DNA of 27,486 nt from a virus (Duplodnaviria; Heunggongvirae; Uroviricota; Caudoviricetes). Below, piece by piece: positions 3,019 to 27,486 of the stretch. Every line of letters starts with the position of its first letter. The stretch's first letter is position 1. The notes beneath the pieces were generated by a model. That model had not been told where the DNA came from. It worked only from the letters and a program-made list of their open reading frames with translations, and made no database searches. The DNA is taken from the IMG/VR virus record IMGVR_UViG_2909282993_000005. The stretch is one strand, 5' to 3'. Both the position numbers and the translations under genes were made by a program.

Positions 3019-3600
3019 TTACCCTATAGGTGCTACTGGCCATTCAATATCCGGTGCAGTTGTTGTATTAACACGGTTCAGCAACACCCGATACTTCTTC
3101 CAGGCTTCCAGCAACGAGATTTCTTCCTCCGTTGCAATTTCCAGATCTGCAGCATCCTGAAGCGGCGCAATATGCTCACTGGCTACCTGCATCAGGTTGT
3201 TTTTTGTTTCTTCCGCCTCCCGGATCCGGAACAGTTTTTCTGCTTCCGTATCCTTCACCCAGGCTGTGCCGTTCCACTTCTGATATTCCCCTTCCGGCGA
3301 TAACCAGGTGACATTTTCCGGTAACGAGCCAAGTTCAGAAATAAATAACGCGTCGCCGGAAGCCACGTCATAGACGGTTTTTCCCCGATGATCTTCAACG
3401 AGATGCCACGATGCCTCATCACTGTTGAAAACAGCCACAAAGCCAGCCGGAATATCTGGCGGTGCAATATCGGTACTGTTTGCTGGCAGACCTGTATGAG
3501 GCGGAATATATGCGTCACCTTCACCAATAAATTCATTAGTTCCGGCCAGCAGATTATAAATTTTTATGGTCCGTGGTTGTTCACTCATTCTGAATGCCAT
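3019..3600 (-). CDS. Tail fiber assembly protein (Tfa family)
   Basis: 193-aa ORF starting [54 protein letters not shown] and ending [13 protein letters not shown]...IEWP, characteristic of lambdoid TfaQ/TfaR/TfaE proteins. Its start overlaps the stf stop. Confidence 0.85.
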
Positions 3601-6760: not shown

Positions 6761-7189
6761 TCAGGGTTTAAAATCCAGCACCCCATTTTGAAATACTTTA
6801 TATACTTCCGGCGAAGGGGGGGCAGGTATATCAGCATTCTTTATCGCATTCATCGCTTCACGACATAAATCGAGGTCTCCACTTTCTCTTTTAACCTCCA
6901 GTAGAAGGCCATTCGGGGCCATATGCATTCTCAGTGTACACTCTTTTCCTGAATACTTACTCGCATCCCCGAACTGTTTTTCGATGGCGCTCTTGATTTG
7001 ATGGGCATACAGACGGATATTCTCACTAACATCAGAAGTACGTTCAGATGAACTCACATACTGTGTCTCTATTGCTTTATCGGAGTAATATGATGTACGG
7101 TCATGATAATTTGTCGATACAGCATCAGTGCACCCGATAATAATCCCACTAATAATCAACGTAAGAATTGATGCGCTACGAAAACCCAT
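6761..7189 (-). CDS. Lipoprotein with TolA domain-III-like C-terminus (paralog of 6215..6610)
   Basis: 142-aa ORF with lipobox (IIIGC). The C-terminus GKECTLRMHMAPNGLLLEVKRESGDLDLCREAMNAIKNADIPAPPSPEVYKVFQNGVLDFKP closely parallels the TolA C-terminal domain and the neighbouring ORF. Confidence 0.7.
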   Translation of the reverse strand: MGFRSASILTLIISGIIIGCTDAVSTNYHDRTSYYSDKAIETQYVSSSERTSDVSENIRLYAHQIKSAIEKQFGDASKYSGKECTLRMHMAPNGLLLEVKRESGDLDLCREAMNAIKNADIPAPPSPEVYKVFQNGVLDFKP

Positions 7190-7306
7190 TTTTCCTCACA
7201 TATGTCATATAGTAAAGGATTATATATACCGTTGTTTTGGACGCTCAAACAGCGAATCAGATCAAATAAAACGCACATTTGTTAACATTTACACAAAGTC
7301 TGCGTG

Positions 7307-7327
7307 GGATATTCTGAAAGAATATCC
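7307..7327. promoter_or_regulatory. 21-bp perfect palindrome ggatattc-tgaaa-gaatatcc (candidate dimeric regulator binding site)
   Basis: Read directly: 8-bp inverted arms around a 5-nt spacer, about 120 bp upstream of the lipoprotein gene start at 7189. No T-run, so not a terminator. Confidence 0.3.
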
Positions 7328-7722
7328 ATAATGTGGAGAGAATCTATTGAAGTGCATGGTGCCGGGTGCCTCCCGGTGAATTCAGTACCAGCACCTGAAT
7401 CCGCGATTATCCCATATACCTACTCGCTGATTGCCCCTCCGCACAGGGGGATTCACCATGCCAGTTTCTTTTAACAAACTCCCCGCAAACCAGAGAACAG
7501 TCAACCGCCTGAATTGTGAAGTATTTAAAAATTTCTCCCGCTAACTGATACCCGGCTAACAGTCTGGCGTTTTCTTTTTCAGCAACGGGAAAGCAACAAC
7601 CACCACACCCGCCACCAGCACACCGTCAGCCAGCACTGACATTATCCGGCTGCTGCAATGCCATTCACAAAAACAGTAAGCAATCACTTTTTACCGTAAC
7701 AGGTGATAATCCAGATATGTAT

Positions 7723-8076: not shown

Positions 8077-8186
8077 TACTTAACAGAACTTTTATTTTTG
8101 ACAAACATATAATATTTTCAACAATATCCTGAGCCAGGTATATTCCAGTATAAGGCTCTGCCGGAAGGAATCTGGAAGAATGAATA

Positions 8187-8263
8187 TGGCGCGCTGTACT
8201 GGATTCGAACCAGTAACCGATTGCTTAGAAGGCAATTGCTCTGTCCGGCTGAGCTAACAACGC
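8187..8263 (-). tRNA. tRNA-Arg (anticodon UCU)
   Basis: 77-nt cloverleaf GCGTTGTTAGCTCAGCCGGACAGAGCAATTGCCTTCTAAGCAATCGGTTACTGGTTCGAATCCAGTACAGCGCGCCA. 7-bp acceptor stem, T-loop GGTTCGAATCC, anticodon loop CTTCTAA (U33, anticodon TCT, A37), encoded CCA. Confidence 0.85.
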
Positions 8264-8367: not shown

Positions 8368-8443
8368 TGGTGGCCCTTGCTGGATTTGAACCAGCGACCT
8401 GGCGATTATGAGTCGCTCGCTCTCACCACTGAGCTAAAGGGCC
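8368..8443 (-). tRNA. tRNA with CAU anticodon, most similar to tRNA-Ile2 (lysidine type, ileX/ileZ-like); elongator Met not fully excluded
   Basis: 76-nt cloverleaf GGCCCTTTAGCTCAGTGGTGAGAGCGAGCGACTCATAATCGCCAGGTCGCTGGTTCAAATCCAGCAAGGGCCACCA. Anticodon loop CTCATAA; strong resemblance to E. coli ileX from recall. Confidence 0.8.
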
Positions 8444-11288: not shown

Positions 11289-11444
11289 TTACTCCTCAGG
11301 TTCGTAAACTGTGAAGACAGCGACCTCCGTCTGGCCGGTTCGGATTCGTAACTCGCAGAGGTCTTTCCTCGTTACCAGTGCCGTCACTATGACGGTTAAA
11401 CAGATGACGATCAGGGCGATTAACATCGCCTTTTGCTGCTTCAT
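11289..11444 (-). CDS. hokD: Hok/Gef-family type I toxin (HokD/RelF-like, 51 aa); in-frame upstream extension to 11501 corresponds to a Mok-like reading frame
   Basis: MKQQKAMLIALIVICLTVIVTALVTRKDLCELRIRTGQTEVAVFTVYEPEE, near-identical to HokD/RelF from recall: single TM helix plus conserved C-terminal periplasmic tail. Confidence 0.9.
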   Translation of the reverse strand: MKQQKAMLIALIVICLTVIVTALVTRKDLCELRIRTGQTEVAVFTVYEPEE

Positions 11445-12164
11445 AGCCTGCTTCTCCTTGCCTTTCGGCACGTAAGAGGCTAACCTAGATTTGCCGTTCA
11501 TAGATTGAGCCTCAGATTAATGTTAAGCGTCTTGCAGGACGCGTAATGTTAACTGGGGCTTTTCTCTATCTGCCTTTGGTGTTCATGCCTGAGGCAGATA
11601 GCCTCAAGCACCCGCAGCAATTCTACTTAACTCCCGTCACCTCGCCAATATAAAATCAATCAGAAAGGCGATCCATAAGAACAACAGCAAGACAATAAAT
11701 TGCCATTACAGCCGCAATAGCTAGCGCACATTTGAGAACCAGCACGACAACCTCCTGTATTGGACGTACACCAGTTCTGATAAATATGAGGCTGTCTCAT
11801 CATTGATTCAATATAACTATTGGGTATAGTTTCTGTGATTTTGTTCTGTAGAAATGGAACACAACAACCAGTCACCACCAGCACTTCTTTAAATACGCCA
11901 AGTCCGACGCAAGCTAACCTTCTAGTCCGCTTTGAGCGAGGAGCGGACCAAACCCGGCCAACTGACTCTTAAAGGGGCCGCAGGAATTTTTCGTCTGAAC
12001 TTTCGAAGCTCCTCTCCCTGAAGACAGAAAACTTCTGTGTGCTGTGGGAATATTGAATCTTTGCATTAGATATAAATAATTTTATCCCGCCTGAAGTTTA
12101 CATTATTTTATTTATCTGTTTTTCTAAATCAGACTGCACTCCTTACTTAAATCAGGAGCCAGTC

Positions 12165-13364
12165 ATGCCATTTGTTATTTATGTGTTTACTATCAGTGCC
12201 TTTGCGCTCGGACTCGCGGAATTTGTCCCCATTGGGCTGACAGACGTTATGGCTCAGGGGTTGTGTGTGGGTGTGGAGCAGACCGGGGCAGCGGTTACAA
12301 CCTATGCACTGGGGGCAACGTTCGCGGCACCCGTACTGTCTGCGCTGACAGCAAGCTGGAGCCGGAAAAATGTAATGCTTACAACTGCCGTTGTGTTTAC
12401 TGCCGGTAGTCTGGCGGCCGCGTTTGCAGCCACATTACCTCAGCTCCTGTTAGCGCGGTTCATTGCTGGTCTGGGACACGGCCTGTTTCTGGCTGCGGCA
12501 TCCAGTACCGCAGCTCGTCTTGCTGGACCGGGTAAAGCAGGCAGAGCGGTGGCTGTGGTATTTGGTGGCTTTACTCTGGCGATGGCAATCGGCGTACCGC
12601 TGAGTACATGGTTGGGGGGGGTGGTCTCATGGCGTCCAGTTCTCGGCGCTATTGCCGCTTTTGGCGCGTTCGGATTCCTTGGACTGTTGTTCGGTATGAA
12701 AGATCCCGTACGCAGCGTGCCCGGTGAACATAGTGACTCAGCAATGCAGAATATCGGCATGCTGTTTAACCGTAAGTTGCTGGCCGGCGCGCTGGTTACG
12801 GTGCTGGCGTATGCAGGCTCGTTTACGGCTTACACCTTTATCGCACCTATTCTGACGCAGGTGACAGGGGTTACCGGAGCAAAGGTGAGTCTGTTTATGC
12901 TGGTTTACGGTATTACAGCTGCGGTAGGTAATATTCTTGGTGGGAAACTTACCGACAGCATGGGGGTTAATCGTGCCAATATACTCATCATTAGCGGCAT
13001 TGTTGTTGTCGTGCTTGGTATGTGGCTGCTGTCATCCTCACCGGTGAGCATGGGCATTCTGGTTGCGCTGCTGGGTATGGTGACATTTGCCGCAGTGCCG
13101 GCACTGCAGGCCCGTCTGATTGGTGTCGCTGAGCAACATGCTCCTCATGCGCATGGTGTTGCTGCCGGCCTGAATATTGCGGGCTTCAACTCAGGTATAG
13201 CGCTGGGATCAGTACTGGGCAGCATTACTATAAGCCACGCCGGTATCGTGTATACCGGTATCAGCGGTGCGATTGTTTCTCTGCTCGGCCTGCTGTTGCT
13301 GCTTGCACAAATCCGTCGCAGCCACAGTCGTAAATTTCAACAGGTTAAAATCGTAGGCCAGTAA
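12165..13364 (+). CDS. MFS transporter (12-TM, DHA1-like efflux/sugar-type family); GC-rich gene
   Basis: 399-aa highly hydrophobic ORF with MFS loop motifs; AGGAG RBS. Nucleotide composition is visibly more GC-rich than the flanking phage DNA. Confidence 0.8.
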   Translation: MPFVIYVFTISAFALGLAEFVPIGLTDVMAQGLCVGVEQTGAAVTTYALGATFAAPVLSALTASWSRKNVMLTTAVVFTAGSLAAAFAATLPQLLLARFIAGLGHGLFLAAASSTAARLAGPGKAGRAVAVVFGGFTLAMAIGVPLSTWLGGVVSWRPVLGAIAAFGAFGFLGLLFGMKDPVRSVPGEHSDSAMQNIGMLFNRKLLAGALVTVLAYAGSFTAYTFIAPILTQVTGVTGAKVSLFMLVYGITAAVGNILGGKLTDSMGVNRANILIISGIVVVVLGMWLLSSSPVSMGILVALLGMVTFAAVPALQARLIGVAEQHAPHAHGVAAGLNIAGFNSGIALGSVLGSITISHAGIVYTGISGAIVSLLGLLLLLAQIRRSHSRKFQQVKIVGQ

Positions 13365-13375
13365 AGGGAGGTTAT

Positions 13376-14068
13376 ATGCTTACCCGTGAAAATATGCTTA
13401 ATGGCACATTTGTCAGGGTGCATGAAGCGCTGCTCCCGGCGAATATGCTCTGGGACGCTGAAAAAATACGCGCATCAATGAACTCTACTCTGGAGGAGCG
13501 CCCGACGGGTGCTCCTTTCTGGATATTTGCCTACGGGTCATTGATGTGGAATCCCGTGCTGGCAATTGAAGAAATGCAACGGGCCCGTCTGAAAGGATGG
13601 CAGCGCAGTTTCTGCATTCGTTTGATATCCGGACGAGCGACTCCTGATGTCCCCGGCAGGATGTTATCGCTCGACGAAGGTGGAATTACCGAAGGTATTG
13701 CGTTCAGACTGCCGGAATCGACTCTTATTAATGAGCTGGAAATTGTCTGGACGCGCGAGATGATAACCGGTCTTTACCGTCCGGTCTGGGCAGACGTTTC
13801 GCTAGGAAACGGTGAGGAAATTCAGGCGCTGGCTTTCGTATCAGACAGACTGCATCCGCATTATGAACAGGACAATCTTACAGCGACCGTAGCGTTGAGC
13901 ATCGCATCTGCCCGTGGAGACATTGGCACGAATGCAGATTATGTATGGAAACTGCAGGCCACTCTGGGTGCGTTGGGAATACGGGATGATTACGTGAGTG
14001 AACTGGCCCTTGCTCTGCATGAGGCTCCCTGTAACGATAAACTTCATCAGCGAGGCGCTTCACTATGA
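13376..14068 (+). CDS. ChaC-family gamma-glutamylcyclotransferase-like protein
   Basis: 230-aa product with FAYGSLMWNP and GRMLSLDEGG...WTREMITG motifs matching the ChaC/GGCT fold signature (YGSL catalytic region). Confidence 0.8.
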   Translation: MLTRENMLNGTFVRVHEALLPANMLWDAEKIRASMNSTLEERPTGAPFWIFAYGSLMWNPVLAIEEMQRARLKGWQRSFCIRLISGRATPDVPGRMLSLDEGGITEGIAFRLPESTLINELEIVWTREMITGLYRPVWADVSLGNGEEIQALAFVSDRLHPHYEQDNLTATVALSIASARGDIGTNADYVWKLQATLGALGIRDDYVSELALALHEAPCNDKLHQRGASL

Positions 14069-14946
14069 GCCATCTGAGCCATCTGCGAACGTTTCTTGAG
14101 GCCTATCGCTCTGGCTCCTTTTCAAAGGCGGCAGAACTACTGGGCATCACTCAGCCCGCGGCGTCACAGCATATCCAGTCTCTTGAGACTCTGGTTGGTA
14201 AGCGTCTGTTTATCAGGCAGGCCAGAGGCGTGACGGCAACCGAAGCTGCGGATGAGCTTGCCCGCTCAGTTTCACCCTTCATTGATGGTCTGGAAGAAAA
14301 GCTGTCCTCTTTCCGGTCAGGCTCTGTACACGGGGGAACAATTAATCTGGCAGGACCGCCAGATTTTATTCATTCCCGGCTTGGGACAGTAATGGCTCCA
14401 CTAATGAAGGAGGGGTATCGCCTACGCTTTCATACCGGCAATAAGCAACGTATTTATTCCCTTTTGCATGACGGGAGCGCCGATCTCGCTGTTACCGCAT
14501 CTATGCCTGATGACCGTCTGTACGGCTATGCACATCTACTGACTGAACGCATGCTCCTTGTTCATGCTCCCGCCATGTCAGAGATCATCGGATCAGAACC
14601 TGGTGCTGAAACGCTTGCCTCATTACCGCTGATTGCTTATGACGAAGAGTTGCCACTGATTAGAGCGCTCTGGGCCTCCATGTTTCAGAGAGCCCCTGAG
14701 ATGCAGGCTACATTCACCATTCCGGATTTACGTATTATCCGCGACTTGGTCTGTGACGGCCACGGGTGGACAGTGCTGCCGGATTATCACTGTGACAATG
14801 ACCTGAAAAGTGGTCGCCTGATTTCAGTGACACCTGCAGACCTCGCTCCGACTAATCATCTTTATCTGGTCTGGAACAAAAGGACGGCTAATAACAGCCG
14901 AACCGCCTATGTTCGGGATTACATTCTTAAAACGTTTCCGCGTTGA
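14065..14946 (+). CDS. LysR-family transcriptional regulator
   Basis: 293-aa product with an N-terminal wHTH typical of LysR (LRTFLEAYRSGSFSKAAELLGITQPAASQHIQSLE) and a C-terminal substrate-binding domain. 4-bp overlap with the ChaC-like gene. Confidence 0.85.
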   Translation: MSHLSHLRTFLEAYRSGSFSKAAELLGITQPAASQHIQSLETLVGKRLFIRQARGVTATEAADELARSVSPFIDGLEEKLSSFRSGSVHGGTINLAGPPDFIHSRLGTVMAPLMKEGYRLRFHTGNKQRIYSLLHDGSADLAVTASMPDDRLYGYAHLLTERMLLVHAPAMSEIIGSEPGAETLASLPLIAYDEELPLIRALWASMFQRAPEMQATFTIPDLRIIRDLVCDGHGWTVLPDYHCDNDLKSGRLISVTPADLAPTNHLYLVWNKRTANNSRTAYVRDYILKTFPR

Positions 14947-14990
14947 TGTTTGAAACGGATGATTGGCGATGTGTATCATAAGTTACGTAT

Positions 14991-15020
14991 GTCCGCTTCT
15001 GGCACAAAGCAGACGCCCAC
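14991..15020. repeat. 30-bp imperfect direct repeat, copy A (gtccgcttctggcacaaagcagacgcccac)
   Basis: Matches copy B at 18664..18693 in 24/30 positions, with a 14-bp core GGCACAAAGCrGAC. Lies between the LysR stop and the convergent membrane-protein gene. Confidence 0.5.
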
Positions 15021-15076
15021 TCTCACGCGAATGCTTTGCCCTTGACTTGCCAACAACCGTATCGCTTGCTCCGCAA

Positions 15077-16369
15077 CTATGGTTTTTTATTAGAACCTTC
15101 GCCACTAAATAAATTATAATAAATTGATTTTATTAGATATCTGTCAGAATCTATATGGTCAGCACGAGTAGCATGCTCTAATGTTTCAAATGCTAGGGTT
15201 TGTGCGGCTTCAGCAAAAATTCCAGGCCAACCCTTACTCAGCATCGACAGTCCTTTAAGTACCCTTATCTGAATTTCCCTCATACTGGCACCATCGCGCG
15301 CAACAGGTGAGAAAAAGTCTTCAAGTAGATCGTTATTCTGAAGTGGTGCAACATGTACAGAAGGATATTTCACTTCTATTTCATCAGATTTATTCTGCGC
15401 GTAAGCGGAAAGTATACGTACACCTCTGCCAATGACATCAATGGCGGTTCCAGGATCGTTCACTGCGGGGGAAAGGGCTCGGCAGGCTATTTCGGCCATG
15501 ACGCTAAGACAAAATCGGGGGTCCTGAGCAAATGAACGTACATCCGAGACAATAATCGTCTCAAGTAAATCGGTGCTGATTGATGACTCCTGGCCCTGAC
15601 TCAGGTACAAAACTGGCGTGGACGGATGTATGAAACTGCCCGGCTGCGCCACGAGGTATACATGACGGGGATCATTGGTCAGCAGCTTGCTGAGTTTCAC
15701 CATATCAACATATTCAACATAGCCAATCTTTTTCGGATAAACTGCAACCGTTCCTTTCGGCTGTTCATTGTTCTCAAGCCATGGATATCCGCCGAGACAG
15801 GGATTTCTTGCTCTCGCAATAAATGTTTCGATGGCCGCCTGTTCTACTTTTGCCGTTGTCTCACCAACCCTCCCCAGAGAGGTCAAATGCTGTATCCAGC
15901 GAAGCAATGTGATGAGGATTAAGGCAATGACAACCAGTGTTACAATGAATAAAATGACTCTCCCCCTTTCTCCATAAGCTCCCATATTGAGGGCAATAAT
16001 CCCTACCAGACTGAAGAGAAAAGAACCGATGAAGGTGGCCAGTACATTTTGTGTGGTGACGTCTTCAACAACTAAACGAGTAGCTCTGGGAGTCACATTA
16101 GTAGTGGCTGAACCGTAGGCTGTGACCATGATGCTCAGCGAAAATGTGGTCACTGCCAGCATACTCGATGCCAGTATGTTCAGAATGTTATCGACTGCTT
16201 CCGCACCAACCTTCACGGAAACCGACTCAGGTATCATTGATTTAAAAAGAATTGATAAAAGGGCCGTTATTATTGCGACAATTGCGAATAACGTTGCCCT
16301 GAACCATAGTTTTTTAAATGTCTGCTTCAGCATCCATTTCCAGCGTGAAATCATTCTGCATTCCCTCAT
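15077..16369 (-). CDS. Membrane protein with N-terminal multi-TM region and C-terminal soluble domain (tentatively DUF2254-like); exact start uncertain (alternative Met codons at residues 6 and 13)
   Basis: 430-aa ORF with four predicted hydrophobic helices in the first ~160 residues and a long hydrophilic C-terminus. Family name is tentative recall. Confidence 0.55.
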   Translation of the reverse strand: MRECRMISRWKWMLKQTFKKLWFRATLFAIVAIITALLSILFKSMIPESVSVKVGAEAVDNILNILASSMLAVTTFSLSIMVTAYGSATTNVTPRATRLVVEDVTTQNVLATFIGSFLFSLVGIIALNMGAYGERGRVILFIVTLVVIALILITLLRWIQHLTSLGRVGETTAKVEQAAIETFIARARNPCLGGYPWLENNEQPKGTVAVYPKKIGYVEYVDMVKLSKLLTNDPRHVYLVAQPGSFIHPSTPVLYLSQGQESSISTDLLETIIVSDVRSFAQDPRFCLSVMAEIACRALSPAVNDPGTAIDVIGRGVRILSAYAQNKSDEIEVKYPSVHVAPLQNNDLLEDFFSPVARDGASMREIQIRVLKGLSMLSKGWPGIFAEAAQTLAFETLEHATRADHIDSDRYLIKSIYYNLFSGEGSNKKP

Positions 16370-16417
16370 ATTGCAGCCGGGATAAATAAATGCCGCCTCT
16401 GTGGCGGCATGTTGCTG

Positions 16418-18421
16418 TTAACGAACCAGATGCAGGAAGTGCAGGTGTTTTTCGTACTGGTCCAGTATGTCATTAATCAGCTGTTCCTGATTCCAGCCCA
16501 TTACATCATAATTTTGGCCGCCCTCTTTGAGATAGACTTCAGCGCGATAATATCGATGTTGTTCACTCTGCTGCTCATCATTATCCAGCGCAGCGAGCGC
16601 GAAGGTCGGTGAGTTATACCCGCGAAGCCTCACTTCATATATATAATTCAGCTCGTTGCCCAAATCGACTTCAAGGCGAATACGATCCTCGGCGGCGTCA
16701 CTGATGTGGCTTATCGTTCCCTGCTTGTTAAGTTCCTCCTGAACCAGCGTCATGGCGGGTTGGATAATGTCGTCCATAAAACGTTTCACAAGAGAGCGCT
16801 TCGGCAAATACGCGATATTGCGTAACCTTCTCTGCCAGGGAATTGGGTTACGTGCAGCCGTAGGAGCAATAGTCGCCATGCTAAGGCTTTCACGCTTGGT
16901 CAAATCCCGACGCAGGGCTTTTAACAGTCCGTATATGGATATTAATAAGATAACTGAGAAGGGCAATGCACTCGCTATCGTTACGGTTTGCAACGCACTC
17001 AGCCCCCCTGCGATCAGCAGGGCAATAGCAACAACGCCCATGAGCGATGCCCAGAAAATTCGCTGCCAGACGGGCGTGTTTGCCACCCCACCTGATGCCA
17101 GAGTATCCACAACCATTGCCCCCGAATCAGCAGACGTTACAAAGAAGACGATGACCATCGCCATTGCAATGAATGACAGCACGGAAGAGAACGGGAAATG
17201 CTCCAGGAAATTAAACAGGGCAAGCGCAACATCCTGCTGAACGGTATTGGCGAGGTCAGTGGCGCCCTGGTTCATGATGAGATAGATGGCGCTGTTTCCA
17301 AACACCGTCATCCACATGAGCGTAAAGCCGGCGGGAACAAACAACACGCCAGTCACGAACTCACGAATTGTCCTGCCGCGGGAAACGCGTGCAATGAACA
17401 TACCTACAAACGGCGACCATGAAAGCCACCATCCCCAGTATAATAATGTCCAGCCCCCCAGCCAGTTGCTCGACTTGGGTTCATACGCGTAAAGGTTGAA
17501 CGTTTTACTCACCAGTTCCGACAGATAACCACCCGTATTTTCCACAAATGACTTCAGCAGAAGCACAGTGGGACCCAGGCACAAGACCAGCGCCAGGAGC
17601 AACACCGCCAGGCCCAGATTAAGCTCAGACAGGATGCGTATTCCCTTGTCCAGGCCGGACACCACCGAAATCGTCGCTAACCCCGTGATGACCACGATCA
17701 AAATGACCTGTACCGTTTCATTGATGGGCACGCCGAAAAGATGGTTCAAACCGGCATTCACCTGCAATACACCGTAACCCAGTGATGTTGCAACGCCAAA
17801 GACAGTGCCTATCACGGCGAAGATATCAACCGCGTGGCCTATAGGCCCGTAAATGCGATCGCCGATAATGGGATAGAGCGCAGAACGCAGCGTTAAAGGC
17901 AGACCGTGACGGTAACTGAAAAAGGCCAGAATCAGCGCCACGATGGCATAAATTGCCCATGCGTGCAGACCCCAGTGGAAGAACGTCAGGCGCATGGCTT
18001 CCTTCGCTGCCGCAACGGTCTCTGGAGTGCCGACAGGTGGCGAAAGATAATGCATCACAGGTTCGGCAACGCCAAAGAACATCAGGCCGATCCCCATCCC
18101 TGCCGAAAAAAGCATCGCGAACCAGGAGTGGTAGCTGAAATCAGGCTGCGCATGGTCTGGGCCCAGCTTTATATCACCGTAACGTGAGAGTCCAAGGAAC
18201 GTGACGCTCAGTAAAATCAGGGCCACAGCAAGTATGTAGAACCAGCTGGCATTCGTGAAGATTTGTTGCTGAAGTAGTTTAAAATTTTTGTCGGCGACAT
18301 CCGGGAATACGGCGGCAAAGGCGACAAGAAGGAAAATTAGCAAAGCAGATGTAAAGAATACCGCTTTGTTAATCTGGCTTGTAGACTTCTTTGGGGTTGT
18401 ATCATTTTCACTCATAATCAT
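16418..18421 (-). CDS. BCCT-family transporter (BetT-like choline/betaine/carnitine transporter)
   Basis: 667-aa product with BCCT signature regions (WTLLYWGWWLSWSPFVGMFIARVSRGRTIREF) and the C-terminal DILDQYEKHLHFLHL tail typical of BetT. Confidence 0.85.
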   Translation of the reverse strand: MIMSENDTTPKKSTSQINKAVFFTSALLIFLLVAFAAVFPDVADKNFKLLQQQIFTNASWFYILAVALILLSVTFLGLSRYGDIKLGPDHAQPDFSYHSWFAMLFSAGMGIGLMFFGVAEPVMHYLSPPVGTPETVAAAKEAMRLTFFHWGLHAWAIYAIVALILAFFSYRHGLPLTLRSALYPIIGDRIYGPIGHAVDIFAVIGTVFGVATSLGYGVLQVNAGLNHLFGVPINETVQVILIVVITGLATISVVSGLDKGIRILSELNLGLAVLLLALVLCLGPTVLLLKSFVENTGGYLSELVSKTFNLYAYEPKSSNWLGGWTLLYWGWWLSWSPFVGMFIARVSRGRTIREFVTGVLFVPAGFTLMWMTVFGNSAIYLIMNQGATDLANTVQQDVALALFNFLEHFPFSSVLSFIAMAMVIVFFVTSADSGAMVVDTLASGGVANTPVWQRIFWASLMGVVAIALLIAGGLSALQTVTIASALPFSVILLISIYGLLKALRRDLTKRESLSMATIAPTAARNPIPWQRRLRNIAYLPKRSLVKRFMDDIIQPAMTLVQEELNKQGTISHISDAAEDRIRLEVDLGNELNYIYEVRLRGYNSPTFALAALDNDEQQSEQHRYYRAEVYLKEGGQNYDVMGWNQEQLINDILDQYEKHLHFLHLVR

Positions 18422-21613: not shown

Positions 21614-21650
21614 TACCCATGGGTATTTACTTTTTAAATACCTATGGGTA
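21614..21650. promoter_or_regulatory. Operator-like palindromes downstream of the repressor gene (OL-equivalent): TACCCATGGGTA (21614-21625) and TACCTATGGGTA (21639-21650)
   Basis: Perfect and near-perfect 12-bp palindromes, 13 bp apart, upstream of the rightward ydfA-like operon. Confidence 0.5.
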
Positions 21651-22678: not shown

Positions 22679-22731
22679 TTTCTGGTGACGTTTGGCGGTA
22701 TCAGTTTTACTCCGTGACTGCTCTGCCGCCC
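22679..22731 (+). ncRNA. dicF: DicF small RNA (cell-division inhibitor sRNA targeting ftsZ mRNA)
   Basis: 53-nt sequence TTTCTGGTGACGTTTGGCGGTATCAGTTTTACTCCGTGACTGCTCTGCCGCCC matches DicF from recall, followed by a T-run (22732-22736) and preceded by a structured ~300-nt leader. Confidence 0.8.
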
Positions 22732-22905: not shown

Positions 22906-23094
22906 ATGAAAACGTTATTACCAAACGTTAATACGTCTGAAGGTTGTTTTGAAATTGGTGTCACTATCAGTAACCCAGTATTTACTGAAGATGCCATTAA
23001 CAAGAGAAAACAAGAACGGGAGCTATTAAATAAAATATGCATTGTTTCAATGCTGGCTCGTTTACGTCTGATGCCAAAAAGATGTGCACAATGA
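22906..23094 (+). CDS. dicB: Cell division inhibitor DicB (MinC-activating, 62 aa)
   Basis: MKTLLPNVNTSEGCFEIGVTISNPVFTEDAINKRKQERELLNKICIVSMLARLRLMPKRCAQ, essentially the DicB sequence as recalled. Confidence 0.85.
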   Translation: MKTLLPNVNTSEGCFEIGVTISNPVFTEDAINKRKQERELLNKICIVSMLARLRLMPKRCAQ

Positions 23095-23282
23095 ATTCAG
23101 CATTTGCGCTTGTTCTGACAGTTTTTCTTGTTTCCGGAGAGCCAGTTGATATTGCAGTCAGTGTTCACAGGACAATGCAGGAGTGTATGACTGCAGCAAC
23201 CGAACAGAAAATTCCCGGTAACTGTTACCCGGTCGATAAAGTTATTCACCAGGATAATATCGAAATCCCGGCAGGTCTTTAA
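23091..23282 (+). CDS. ydfD: YdfD-like small membrane protein (63 aa; the Qin homolog is reported to cause lysis when expressed)
   Basis: MNSAFALVLTVFLVSGEPVDIAVSVHRTMQECMTAATEQKIPGNCYPVDKVIHQDNIEIPAGL with an N-terminal TM helix. ATGA overlap with the dicB stop. Confidence 0.6.
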   Translation: MNSAFALVLTVFLVSGEPVDIAVSVHRTMQECMTAATEQKIPGNCYPVDKVIHQDNIEIPAGL

Positions 23283-23375
23283 AACAGTTCCGTAATAAAT
23301 ATCCGGTTTCATTCTTATATGCCAGCAATGGCAGGGATTTATTCATCCTTAAATCTGTCATGAGGTTAAAATAAA

Positions 23376-25847
23376 ATGAGTAAAGTCTTTATTTGCGCCG
23401 CTATTCCTGACGAACTGGCAACAAGGGAAGAAGGCGCTGTGGCTGTAGCCACAGCCATTGAAGCTGGCGACGAACGCCGTGCTCGAGCAAAATTTCACTG
23501 GCAATTCCTGGAACATTATCCGGCTGCTCAGGACTGCGCTTATAAATTTATTGTCTGCGAGGATAAACCTGGCATACCCCGCCCAGCCCTCGATTCATGG
23601 GATGCTGAATATATGCAGGAAAACCGCTGGGATGAGGATTCTGCTTCTTTTGTTCCGGTTGAGACTGAATCCGATCCGATGAACGTCACTTTTGACAAGC
23701 TGGCCCCTGAAGTACAGAACGCTGTCATGGTTAAGTTCGACACATGTGAAAACATCACCGTTGATATGATTATTAGCGCGCAGGAATTGTTGCAGGAAGA
23801 CATGGCAACATTCGACGGACATATCGTTGAAGCGTTGATGAAAATGCCAGAAGTTAACGCCATGTATCCGGAGCTTAAGTTGCACGCCATTGGGTGGGTT
23901 AAGCATAAATGTATTCCTAGTGCTAAATGGCCCGAAATTCAGGCAGAGATGCGCATCTGGAAAAAACGTCGCGAAGGTGAACGCAAGGAAACCGGAAAAT
24001 ACACGTCTGTTGTTGATCTCGCCCGCGCCAGAACCAATCAACAGTACACTGAAAATTCAACAGGAAAAATCTGCCCGGTCATTGCTGCCATTCATCGCGA
24101 ATACAAGCAGACATGGAAAACACTGGATGACGAACTGGCCTACGCTCTCTGGCCTGGTGATGTGGGTGCCGGAAACATTGACGGCAGCATCCATCGCTGG
24201 GCAAAAAAAGAAGTTATCGACAACGACCGCGAAGACTGGAAGCGTATCTCGGCATCAATGCGCAAACAGCCTGATGCCCTTCGCTACGACCGCCAAACTA
24301 TTTTTGGCCTTGTCCGTGAGCGTCCGATCGACATTCACAAAGATCCCGTAGCACTGAACAAATATATCTGCGAATACCTGACGACAAAGGGCGCGTTTGA
24401 GAATGAAGAAACAGACCTGGGCACTGTTGATGTTCTCCAGTCATCAGAAACACAAACTGATGCAGTGGAAACTGAGGTATCTGATATCCCAAAAAATGAA
24501 ACCGCGCCGGAAGCTGAACCATCTGTAGAGCGTGAGGGGCCGTTCTATTTCCTCTTCGCAGATAAGGACGGAGAAAAATACGGTCGCGCAAACAAACTTT
24601 CTGGTCTGGATAAGGCACTGGCTGCTGGCGCCACTGAAATCACAAAAGAAGAATATTTTGCCCGAAAAAATGGCACATACACGGGCTTACCGCAAAATGT
24701 AGATACCGCTGAAGATTCAGAACAACCAGAGCCGATAAAAGTTACCGCTGACGAAGTAAACAAAATTATGCAGGCAGCCAATATCAGCCAGCCTGACGCC
24801 GATAAGTTGCTTGCTGCATCACGTGGTGAATTTGTTGAAGGGATTAGTGACCCGAATGATCCGAAATGGGTTAAGGGGATCCAGACCCGCGATTCTGTGA
24901 ACCAGAACCAGCATGAATCGGAACGGAACTACCAAAAAGCGGAACAAAACAGTCCAAATGCGTTACAAAACGAGCCAGAAACGAAACAGCCTGAACCAGT
25001 GGCGCAACAGGAAGTGGAAAAAGCCTGCACCGCCTGCGGTCAGACCGGCGGCGGCAACTGCCCTGATTGTGGCGCGGTGATGGGCGACGCAACATACCAA
25101 GAAACATTCGATGAAGAGTATCAGGTTGAAGTTCAGGAAGATGATCCGGAGGAAATGGAAGGCGCTGAACATCCACACAAGGAGAACACTGGCGGCAATC
25201 AGCATCACAATAGCGATAATGAAACTGGCGAGACGGCAGATCACCCAATTAAGGTGAACGGTCATCACGAAATCACATCCACCAGCAGGACGTGTGACCA
25301 TCTAATGATCGACCTTGAAACCATGGGAAAAAATCCTGATGCCCCGATCATCTCAATAGGTGCAATATTTTTCGATCCGCAAACCGGAGATATGGGACCG
25401 GAATTTAGTAAGACTATCGATCTGGAAACTGCTGGCGGAGTCATTGATCGGGACACCATTAAATGGTGGCTTAAGCAATCACGCGAAGCGCAATCTGCCA
25501 TTATGACCGATGAAATCCCGTTAGATGATGCACTGTTACAATTGCGGGAATTTATCGACGAAAACTCCGGTGAATTTTTTGTTCATGTCTGGGGAAATGG
25601 AGCCAACTTCGACAACACGATTTTGCGCCGTTCATACGAACGGCAGGGGATCCCCTGCCCGTGGCGTTACTACAACGATCGCGATGTACGCACAATCGTT
25701 GAGCTGGGGAAAGCCATAGACTTCGATGCCAGAACGGCTATTCCATTCGAAGGTGAGCGCCATAATGCACTTGATGACGCCCGTTACCAGGCAAAATACG
25801 TTTCAGTTATCTGGCAAAAACTGATCCCGAGTCAGGCTGATTCTTAA
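23376..25847 (+). CDS. Large recombination-module protein (YdfE-like, often annotated exodeoxyribonuclease VIII-like) with central acidic region, C4 zinc ribbon and C-terminal DEDDh (DnaQ-like) 3'-5' exonuclease domain
   Basis: 823-aa ORF with GAGGT RBS. Exo I LMIDLETMG, Exo II VWGNGANFDNTIL and Exo III HNALDDARYQAKY motifs in the last ~190 residues. Zinc ribbon CTACGQTGGGNCPDCG. Conserved LLAASRGEFVEGISDPNDPKWVKGIQTRD block. Confidence 0.7.
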   Translation: MSKVFICAAIPDELATREEGAVAVATAIEAGDERRARAKFHWQFLEHYPAAQDCAYKFIVCEDKPGIPRPALDSWDAEYMQENRWDEDSASFVPVETESDPMNVTFDKLAPEVQNAVMVKFDTCENITVDMIISAQELLQEDMATFDGHIVEALMKMPEVNAMYPELKLHAIGWVKHKCIPSAKWPEIQAEMRIWKKRREGERKETGKYTSVVDLARARTNQQYTENSTGKICPVIAAIHREYKQTWKTLDDELAYALWPGDVGAGNIDGSIHRWAKKEVIDNDREDWKRISASMRKQPDALRYDRQTIFGLVRERPIDIHKDPVALNKYICEYLTTKGAFENEETDLGTVDVLQSSETQTDAVETEVSDIPKNETAPEAEPSVEREGPFYFLFADKDGEKYGRANKLSGLDKALAAGATEITKEEYFARKNGTYTGLPQNVDTAEDSEQPEPIKVTADEVNKIMQAANISQPDADKLLAASRGEFVEGISDPNDPKWVKGIQTRDSVNQNQHESERNYQKAEQNSPNALQNEPETKQPEPVAQQEVEKACTACGQTGGGNCPDCGAVMGDATYQETFDEEYQVEVQEDDPEEMEGAEHPHKENTGGNQHHNSDNETGETADHPIKVNGHHEITSTSRTCDHLMIDLETMGKNPDAPIISIGAIFFDPQTGDMGPEFSKTIDLETAGGVIDRDTIKWWLKQSREAQSAIMTDEIPLDDALLQLREFIDENSGEFFVHVWGNGANFDNTILRRSYERQGIPCPWRYYNDRDVRTIVELGKAIDFDARTAIPFEGERHNALDDARYQAKYVSVIWQKLIPSQADS

Positions 25848-25919: not shown

Positions 25920-26171
25920 ATGAGCGAAGTAATCATGATTGTCTCTCCCGGCAAATGGGTATCCGAAGAGCAGTTAATTGCGCTGAAAGGAATAAAAAAA
26001 GGTACGTTAAAAAAGGCCCGGGAAAAATCGTTTATGGAAGGAAGGGAATATAAGCATGTCGCTCATGACGGTATGCCATGGGATAACAGCCCATGCTTTT
26101 ACAACCTGGAAGAAATTGATCGCTGGATTGAGCGCCAGGCATCAGCGAGACCAAGACGTCATCTTACTTGA
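25920..26171 (+). CDS. Excisionase-like protein (Xis)
   Basis: 83-aa ORF immediately upstream of the integrase. The GREYKHV segment resembles the lambda Xis DNA-binding region (DGREYLFHESA, recall). Confidence 0.55.
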   Translation: MSEVIMIVSPGKWVSEEQLIALKGIKKGTLKKAREKSFMEGREYKHVAHDGMPWDNSPCFYNLEEIDRWIERQASARPRRHLT

Positions 26172-26190: not shown

Positions 26191-27486
26191 ATGAGAGAAG
26201 TTGAAATGAAATATCCGACAGGCGTGGAAAACCATGGAGGGAAATTACGTATCTGGTTTGTTTATAAAGGCGTAAGAGTCAGGGAAAATCTGGGGGTTCC
26301 TGACACAGCAAAAAACAGGCGCGTTGCAGGTGAACTACGCGCCTCTGTTTGTTACGCAATAAAAACTGGTGTTTTCGACTATGCAAAACAGTTTCCCTCC
26401 TCACGCAATCTGGAAAAATTTGGTGAGGCCCGACAAGATTTAACCATAAAAGAACTGGCTGAAAAATTTCTGGCACTGAAAGAAACTGAAGTCGCAAAAA
26501 CATCACTCAACACATACCGTGCCGTCATCAAAAATATCCTGAGCATAATCGGTGAAAAAAATCTTGCCTCATCGATTAATAAAGAAAAATTACTGGAGGT
26601 TCGTAAAGAGCTACTGACTGGATACCAGATCCCCAAAAGTAACTATATTGTTACACAACCAGGGAGATCGGCTGTAACTGTAAATAATTACATGACAAAT
26701 CTTAACGCCGTGTTCCAGTTTGGTGTTGATAACGGCTACCTGGCAGATAACCCGTTTAAGGGGATCTCGCCATTAAAGGAATCAAGAACCATTCCGGATC
26801 CTCTTTCGCGGGAGGAATTCATCCGTCTTATCGATGCGTGCAGAAATCAGCAAGCCAAAAATTTATGGTGTGTTTCTGTTTATACTGGCGTTCGCCCTGG
26901 TGAGCTGTGTGCACTTGGATGGGAGGACATAGATCTGAAAAATGGAACAATGATGATCAGGAGAAATTTAGCAAAAGACCGTTTCACGGTACCAAAAACA
27001 CAGGCGGGAACCAATCGGGTCATTCATCTTATTAAGCCAGCAATCGACGCTCTCCGGAGTCAGATGACATTAACGAGACTGAGCAAAGAGCATATCATTG
27101 ATGTTCACCTCAGAGAGTATGGCAGAACAGAAAAACATAAATGCACCTTTGTTTTTCAACCTGAAGTGTCAGCGAGAGTAAAAAATTATGGTGACCATTT
27201 TACCGTTGACTCAATAAGGCAGATGTGGGACGCAGCGATAAAACGTGCCGGACTCCGCCATCGAAAATCATATCAGTCGAGACATACTTATGCCTGCTGG
27301 TCGCTGACTGCTGGTGCTAACCCGGCATTTATAGCAAACCAGATGGGCCATGCAGATGCGCAAATGGTATTTCAGGTATACGGAAAATGGATGTCTGAAA
27401 ACAATAATGCACAGGTAGCTTTGTTAAATACACAGTTAAGCGAGTTTGCCCCAACCATGCCCCATAACGAAGCAATGAAAAATTAA
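26191..27486 (+). CDS. Tyrosine recombinase / phage integrase (likely true start at ATG 26206, which has a GAGAAG RBS)
   Basis: 431-aa ORF with the C-terminal catalytic region of the integrase family (RHTYACW, GHADAQMVFQVYGKW with catalytic Tyr). The window ends at its stop codon, so the att site is outside the window. Confidence 0.9.
   Translation: MREVEMKYPTGVENHGGKLRIWFVYKGVRVRENLGVPDTAKNRRVAGELRASVCYAIKTGVFDYAKQFPSSRNLEKFGEARQDLTIKELAEKFLALKETEVAKTSLNTYRAVIKNILSIIGEKNLASSINKEKLLEVRKELLTGYQIPKSNYIVTQPGRSAVTVNNYMTNLNAVFQFGVDNGYLADNPFKGISPLKESRTIPDPLSREEFIRLIDACRNQQAKNLWCVSVYTGVRPGELCALGWEDIDLKNGTMMIRRNLAKDRFTVPKTQAGTNRVIHLIKPAIDALRSQMTLTRLSKEHIIDVHLREYGRTEKHKCTFVFQPEVSARVKNYGDHFTVDSIRQMWDAAIKRAGLRHRKSYQSRHTYACWSLTAGANPAFIANQMGHADAQMVFQVYGKWMSENNNAQVALLNTQLSEFAPTMPHNEAMKN

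Follow-up and report, generated by a model that had tools for sequence, protein, structure and literature searches.

A RecE-family protein of Escherichia coli prophages with a predicted DEDDh 3'-5' exonuclease domain at its C terminus

Introduction

RecE of the Rac prophage is an 866-amino-acid (aa) protein encoded in the early-left operon, ahead of the excisionase (xis) and integrase (int) genes, and its gene is overlapped by recT. Its catalytic domain is a 5'-3' nuclease of the PD-(D/E)XK type, and full-length RecE has been reported to boost linear-linear recombination (PMC11611040). Here we describe a gene lying in the same operon position in a Caudoviricetes sequence of 27,486 nucleotides (nt), IMG/VR record IMGVR_UViG_2909282993_000005, the whole of which is referred to below as the window. 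The gene encodes an 823-aa protein which, unlike RecE, ends in a DEDDh domain of predicted 3'-5' polarity, and it is followed not by recT but by xis, 72 nt downstream. The locus thus also departs from the two-component recombinases Red and RecET: its nuclease class predicts the opposite polarity, and an annealase partner is absent from the operon. Our best overall explanation, to which we assign a probability of roughly 0.6, is that this is a RecE-family early-left-operon nuclease in which a DEDDh domain would have replaced the PD-(D/E)XK 5'-3' exonuclease, and which would process DNA ends.

The founder of the Pfam family matched by this domain (PF16473), Rv2179c of Mycobacterium tuberculosis, is a single-domain protein and, according to the Pfam description, an exoribonuclease. 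Two other proteins of the DEDDh family, T4 DexA and E. coli EcD, are 3'-5' DNases (PMC12153337). Among lambdoid phages, Tritos was recently presented as the prototype of a nuclease-only class, with no annealase, no anti-RecBCD function and abundant Chi sites (PMC12315714, Genome Research 2025). The gene described here is already known, being present in RefSeq, Pfam and PHROG, and its Tritos relative was flagged in the 2025 paper. We found no functional study in the literature on ydfE, on PF16473 or on prophage proteins combining RecE with a DEDDh domain. The architecture, which an earlier reading made from the sequence alone had called poorly characterized, is so in biochemical terms, although databases list it well and it is found extremely often.

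Results

A predicted DEDDh exonuclease domain at the C terminus

The gene is a complete open reading frame (ORF) of 823 codons at 23376..25847 on the + strand, with an ATG start and a GAGG Shine-Dalgarno sequence 10 nt 5' of it, in line with the sequence-only reading, which had proposed an intact YdfE-like recombination protein ending in a DEDDh exonuclease. Its product is identical to RefSeq WP_000048286.1, annotated "exonuclease", and its precomputed Pfam architecture is YdfE_N, YdfE_C and Rv2179c-like. The last of these, PF16473, matches aa 642 to 813 (25299..25814, +) with an E value of 6.9e-67 and 225 bits against a cutoff of 27, covering model positions 2 to 177 of 177. A second family, PF00929 (RNase_T), matches weakly (E = 2e-4). 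The three DnaQ-like motifs were found where they had been placed, namely MIDLET at 644-649 (D646 and E648), NGANFD at 741-746 (D746) and HNALDD at 796-801 (H796 and D801), so that all five catalytic residues are present.

These motifs map onto the DEDDh catalytic residues. In a four-way alignment of the 823-aa protein, a T4-like DexA (phage RB27), an EcD-like E. coli protein and a 72%-identical variant, residues D646, E648, D746, H796 and D801 are invariant and correspond to D7, E9, D119, H186 and D191 of DexA, the catalytic residue list being that of PMC12153337. A sequence search of the PDB returned T4 DexA (8KEL and 8KEN) as the only solved relatives, with an E value of 6e-6 for 8KEL. Conversely, a phmmer search with the RecE PD-(D/E)XK nuclease (RecE aa 600-866) gave no match in the 823-aa protein. 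The RecE equivalog model NF007259 reached 278 bits against a cutoff of 1269, aligning aa 246-623 with model positions 271-600 of 877. Taken together, these profile and alignment results make it very probable that the protein is a DEDDh 3'-5' exonuclease built on a RecE-homologous scaffold.

The noncatalytic region and its relation to RecE

By BLASTP, aa 278-627 align with residues 293-592 of Rac RecE (E = 9e-63). The similarity ends exactly where the catalytic domains begin (RecE residue 592), and the final ~150 residues of the aligned region are almost identical. They include the zinc ribbon, the acidic tract and the LLAASRGEFV...GIQTRD block. The latter, assigned in the sequence-only reading to RecE-family proteins as the LLAASRGEFV.GISDPNDPKWVKGIQTRD block, is indeed common to both proteins. 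This almost identical block spans aa 472-627 (24789..25256, +), corresponds to RecE 452-592 and shows 86% nucleotide identity to recE. The zinc ribbon within it (25026..25070, +) was confirmed by motif scan and is present in RecE too, but with the spacing C551-x2-C554-x7-C562-x2-C565, the central gap being x7 and not x10 as first read. An acidic region ahead of the exonuclease had also been noted, and 14 Asp or Glu and no Lys or Arg were counted in aa 561-600. Its core, the acidic tract at aa 571-600 (25086..25175, +), contains no basic residue and is disordered in the AlphaFold model. A His/Asn/Gly-rich linker leads from there to aa 640.

The N-terminal 240 residues seemed unlike RecE until profiles were compared with profiles. 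The N-terminal domain (aa 1-205; 23376..23990, +) is matched by Pfam YdfE_N, and hhalign comparison of YdfE_N with RecE_N (Pfam Exonuc_VIII) gave a probability of 95.7% and an E value of 8e-9 over 222 columns, indicating remote homology. It is followed by a helical middle domain (aa 245-343; 24108..24404, +) with a predicted local distance difference test (pLDDT) score of ~90, in which the BLASTP alignment to RecE starts and which lies in the partial NF007259 match. YdfE_C was assigned to this region from the order of the matches, as the tool gives no residue range. A beta-hairpin/helix mini-domain (aa 388-435; 24537..24680, +; pLDDT ~80) comes next. Its columns GPFY (388-391), GRANK (403-407), G418 and E421-I422 are invariant in all YdfE-type relatives sampled, whereas a motif survey did not find the GPFY/GRANK mini-domain in Rac RecE. 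On these sequence and profile comparisons, homology to RecE extends over the whole noncatalytic region (aa 1-627, corresponding to RecE 1-592), and the nuclease alone is swapped.

The Pfam family PF06630 (Exonuc_VIII) deserves a comment here. It models approximately residues 1-200 of RecE-type proteins (matched by P0160, P0237 and P0133), which are noncatalytic, and its presence or absence is thus uninformative about a RecE nuclease.

Exchange of modules among relatives

Near-identical E. coli copies filled our first homologue search, and the diversity reported here comes from a search against 50%-identity representatives and from one seeded with a distant relative. With aa 1-640 as the query, 247 relatives were recovered among the 50%-identity representatives. 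The long relatives are combinatorial: the N terminus is of either the YdfE or the RecE type, and at the C terminus there is a DEDDh domain, the RecE nuclease, a third module or another sequence. Not every one of them has the GPFY/GRANK mini-domain, and the same holds for the zinc ribbon.

The third module, of ~270 aa, was found in proteins of Klebsiella, Salmonella, Enterobacter and Citrobacter that bear the annotation "exodeoxyribonuclease VIII"; the named proteins carrying it are all from Enterobacterales. P0129 (Klebsiella), P0284 (Citrobacter; locus L037, 6001-8364) and ~100 relatives join it to a YdfE_N/YdfE_C scaffold. The module gave no Pfam match, and when PDB sequences were searched with it and with the N-terminal scaffold, by sequence and by profile, no match emerged. 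The confident AlphaFold model of P0129 had human Rad52(1-212) as its sole significant PDB fold match (E = 1.6e-5, probability 1.00, 180 columns). As the Foldseek output for P0129 came without query coordinates, we assigned this match to the C-terminal module because that is where the long beta-hairpins and a conserved KKSLTDAxKKAL helix lie. Judging from this model, the third-module proteins are probably scaffold-annealase fusions and not nucleases, and would then be misannotated. In a Citrobacter prophage, the third-module gene lies between GamL and xis/int. These proteins may correspond to the nuclease-less "RecE-2" of PMC12315714.

Salmonella phage 118970_sal3 (locus L043, 4498-5067) carries a stand-alone DEDDh gene of 189 aa, 57% identical to the exonuclease domain and located directly before xis-int. 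This suggests that the fusion arose when a RecE-type scaffold joined a stand-alone DEDDh gene like this one.

Comparison with DexA, EcD and Rv2179c

Since the closest characterized relatives, T4 DexA and E. coli EcD, are DNases, DNA is the likelier substrate of the DEDDh protein by analogy. The catalytic residues of both are identical to those of the 823-aa protein, although DexA and EcD are stand-alone proteins of 189-227 aa while the domain is here fused to a scaffold, and its identity is 23% to DexA and 37-38% to the EcD-like protein. A 3'-5' exoribonuclease like Rv2179c, acting on phage or host RNAs (the dicBF transcripts, for instance) to trim them or turn them over, would fit the Pfam family name and the many database entries that read "3'-5' exoribonuclease". 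These names, however, are copied from the Pfam family name. Rv2179c gave no direct sequence match when the PDB was searched with the 823-aa protein, the nearest characterized relatives by sequence are DNases, and the other partners of the scaffold are DNA enzymes. We consequently hold an RNA-directed role to be most improbable.

The main rival explanation is anti-phage defense or superinfection exclusion, in which the DEDDh domain would destroy incoming modified phage DNA, for example DNA with 5-hydroxymethylcytosine (5hmC), in the way of EcD ("HREX"), and protection of the host would explain why cryptic prophages retain the gene. Indeed, EcD is itself a stand-alone DEDDh protein that degraded T4 DNA and protected E. 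coli against T4 (PMC12153337, Nucleic Acids Research 2025). The cluster fitting both the EcD primers and its residue A78 consists of E. coli proteins of 189/193 aa, 38% identical to our exonuclease domain. EcD was also considered as a possible fragment of the 823-aa protein and rejected as such, its primers matching this separate stand-alone family, which is only 38% identical.

Residue by residue, the 823-aa protein shares with HREX the conservation of the catalytic residues but differs elsewhere. DexA D90, which is A78 in EcD, is Asp718 here, so that the change tied to tetramer loss in HREX is not seen. The 5hmC-contacting Trp152 corresponds to Tyr766 in our protein, while the EcD-like protein has a Trp. 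Asp169 corresponds to Lys779 (Glu in the EcD-like protein), an assignment that is soft because it falls in a gapped loop. In addition, PADLOC returned a match to a generic DEDDh model only (E = 1.5e-5). Weighing these differences with the genomic evidence given below, we find a defense role unlikely.

The retained Asp bears on another alternative, the scavenging of host DNA, whereby the protein would degrade host or linear DNA to nucleotides during lytic growth, as in the first role of T4 DexA. The domain is of the same family as DexA, and it keeps the Asp equivalent to D90 that was linked to a tetramer active on unmodified DNA (PMC12153337). The fusion to a scaffold which elsewhere bears an annealase nevertheless points to targeted end processing and not to bulk degradation. 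Moreover, temperate lambdoid phages are not known to degrade the host chromosome. Such a role thus appears improbable to us.

Distribution and selection

The same protein was found in 1315 blocks of the assembly collection, and PHROG 2082 matches it from end to end. DNA encoding the DEDDh module was present in 4068 of the 5426 complete E. coli genomes (75%), at 8106 places and in up to 7 copies per genome, a prevalence that can be counted in favor of defense. In comparison, DNA for the RecE nuclease module was found in 1735 of these genomes (32%), at 1826 places. By tblastn, the DEDDh domain was detected in 1628 phage records, T4-like dexA included.

The ratio of nonsynonymous to synonymous substitution rates (dN/dS) was 0.24-0.28 for the whole gene. 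Between diverged copies, it was 0.12-0.17 in the N-terminal domain, 0.16-0.22 in the DEDDh domain and 0.3-0.44 in the middle. Because full-length, near-identical homologues occur in thousands of genomes and dN/dS is 0.24-0.28, a chance origin is excluded. The synonymous rate dS varies up to ~25-fold among the modules of a single pair, a spread that, at the sequence level, is the signature of mosaic recombination.

We also considered that the gene could be a nonfunctional remnant, left behind as the prophage decays. In favor of this, the prophage around it is degraded and contains inserted cargo, and disrupted copies exist in K-12 and in some O26-type prophages. Yet the 823-aa frame is intact, every module shows dN/dS values of 0.12-0.44, the identical protein recurs throughout the assembly collection, and the gene is present in plaque-forming phages. 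We therefore give this explanation almost no credence. On the other hand, an intact ORF under purifying selection in a prophage remnant without head and tail genes speaks for a benefit to the host, as defense would require.

In O26-type Shiga toxin-producing E. coli, the PPompW prophages (locus L041, 3001-5468) carry a 90%-identical homologue that is annotated as frameshifted. Going by this frameshifted copy, some lineages are losing the exonuclease gene.

Tritos, related phages and Chi sites

The Tritos nuclease gene (TRITO_27) is 98.8% identical to ours in nucleotide sequence over the full gene, and the order of genes from the repressor to int is the same as in the window. Tritos, however, is a complete phage of 46 kb, whereas what the window contains is a degraded prophage into which cargo genes have been inserted. 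The gene order is also matched in the functional phages HannyBb, PhiR42_1 and mEp460, and the exonuclease gene is the last one before xis-int in the window as well as in Tritos, mEp460 and 640R1. Its occurrence in fully functional temperate phages argues against the defense explanation. The complete Tritos genome has no annotated annealase, and inspection of five Tritos proteins with no name or a weak one revealed none.

Chi sites (GCTGGTGG) are in excess in both sequences. Tritos has 9 on the top strand and 2 on the bottom strand against 0.86 expected. The window has 6 on the minus strand (7612, 10609, 10667, 11875, 20519 and 25279) and 2 on the plus strand (10151 and 10203) against 0.27 expected per strand, and one of them falls within the exonuclease gene. 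Because this gene is on the plus strand in the window and on the minus strand in Tritos, the excess in the window is on the same strand as the excess in Tritos.

Operon and prophage context

The window holds the degraded remains of a Qin-like prophage integrated at rspB, the site that Qin occupies in K-12. Its plus strand encodes the repressor, ydfA, ydfB and ydfC, the small RNA (sRNA) DicF (22680..22731; Rfam RF00039, 76.7 bits), dicB (22906..23094), ydfD (23091..23282), the exonuclease gene, xis (25920..26171) and a tyrosine integrase gene that reaches the end of the window (26191..27486). The exonuclease gene, preceded directly by ydfD and followed directly by xis, is in the closing part of this early-left operon. 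It thus lies between dicB/ydfD and xis-int, that is, in the exo/recE slot of lambdoid phages, as had been proposed. No annealase gene was found between the exonuclease gene and xis or elsewhere in the window operon. We infer the label "recombination protein" from this position and from the homology to RecE.

The neighboring dicB gene reportedly protects against some phages, which can be counted for the defense explanation. Against it, the exonuclease gene sits at the distal end of a repressor-controlled lytic operon, and a simple scan found no promoter-like site of its own ahead of it. A weak terminator-like hairpin is located upstream of the gene, at 23320-23333. A strong terminator-like hairpin with a 16-bp stem and a T-rich tail was seen right after the repressor gene, at 21614-21650 (+). 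As this hairpin follows the repressor gene, the dicBF-type operon would need its own promoter downstream of 21650; a simple scan of that region found no consensus promoter.

The K-12 counterpart, the Qin pseudogene ydfE, was examined in a K-12 derivative, where it occupies the same rspB site and the same dicBF operon. In agreement with the sequence-only reading, which took it to be a fragment disrupted by an insertion sequence, K-12 ydfE corresponds to the first 767 nt of our gene (nt 1-767, at 99% identity), which are followed by an IS2 transposase fragment and then by a truncated integrase gene. Nothing of the middle region, the zinc ribbon or the exonuclease domain is thus left in K-12 YdfE. 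Together with the matches to both YdfE_N and YdfE_C, this bears out the description of the 823-aa protein as YdfE-like.

The minus strand of the window encodes tail-fiber assembly and fiber fragments, a lysozyme, a TolA_C-like ORF, a Q antiterminator, RusA, DUF968 and hok/sok. Beyond hok/sok come a cargo block and then replication genes with a cro-like gene. The cargo block (12165-18421) is of nonphage type and contains an MFS transporter, ChaC, a LysR regulator, DUF2254 and an intact BCCT transporter, the latter being frameshifted in strain F8111-1SC3. The TolA_C-like ORF, at 6761-7189 (-) in the lysis region, encodes 142 aa and has a TolA C-terminal domain (E = 3.6e-23), an unusual feature in a prophage gene. 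Rfam matches on the minus strand further comprised two tRNA genes downstream of the Q antiterminator (8190-8263 and 8371-8443), the sRNA STnc100 (7300-7490), an IS009 RNA element overlapping the tail-fiber assembly gene (3059-3257) and the sok antitoxin RNA (11439-11613).

Discussion

We propose that the DEDDh domain would perform two-metal-ion 3'-5' exonucleolysis, probably on DNA 3'-OH ends, while the disordered acidic linker would tether it flexibly to the scaffold. The nuclease would act without a phage annealase or an anti-RecBCD partner, in phages that are rich in Chi and thought to depend on host RecBCD and RecA. Because its carriers have these properties, its most likely role would be to process DNA ends in the lytic cycle, for instance by trimming 3' tails. 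Trimming of 3' tails by host 3'-5' exonucleases makes ends usable by RecBCD, allowing it to load. That the protein would in this way support host-dependent recombination or replication is a possibility we put forward tentatively.

Several points weigh against our preferred explanation. In the full-length AlphaFold model, the N-terminal half is confident but pLDDT is below 50 over aa 569-823, a region for which the input consisted of near-identical sequences only; because of this, the DEDDh fold rests on sequence profiles and not on structure. PF16473 is named for an exoribonuclease, and the substrate may be RNA. Furthermore, 3'-5' exonucleases usually inhibit homologous recombination, and int-proximal DnaQ-type genes were excluded from Rec modules (PMC12315714); stand-alone DnaQ-type genes do adjoin int in other phages. 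Finally, an intact gene in a prophage devoid of virion genes could equally fit a benefit to the host, such as defense.

Whatever the physiological role, the scaffold has been seen with a 5'-3' PD-(D/E)XK nuclease, with a DEDDh nuclease of predicted 3'-5' polarity and, according to the structural model, with a Rad52-like annealase. We speculate that the RecE/YdfE noncatalytic region may serve as a general platform by which interchangeable DNA-end effectors are delivered to a common target, which might be DNA ends, RecBCD or the replisome. The DEDDh version could then be a dedicated partner of host RecBCD and Chi, blunting ends, or a weapon against competing phages. We regard this as doubtful at present, but if it were true, the RecE N terminus, long unexplained, would gain a testable function. 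Module swapping also provides an experimental handle on this region of RecE.

Overall, RecE as it has been studied is the minority form in E. coli, and its DEDDh-ended relative is far commoner. Phage records often label the DEDDh-ended protein "exodeoxyribonuclease VIII", and a "RecE-like" annotation should imply neither 5'-3' polarity nor recombineering potential. The DEDDh-RecE architecture also bears on how recombination proceeds in lambdoid phages that lack an annealase and are rich in Chi sites (PMC12315714).

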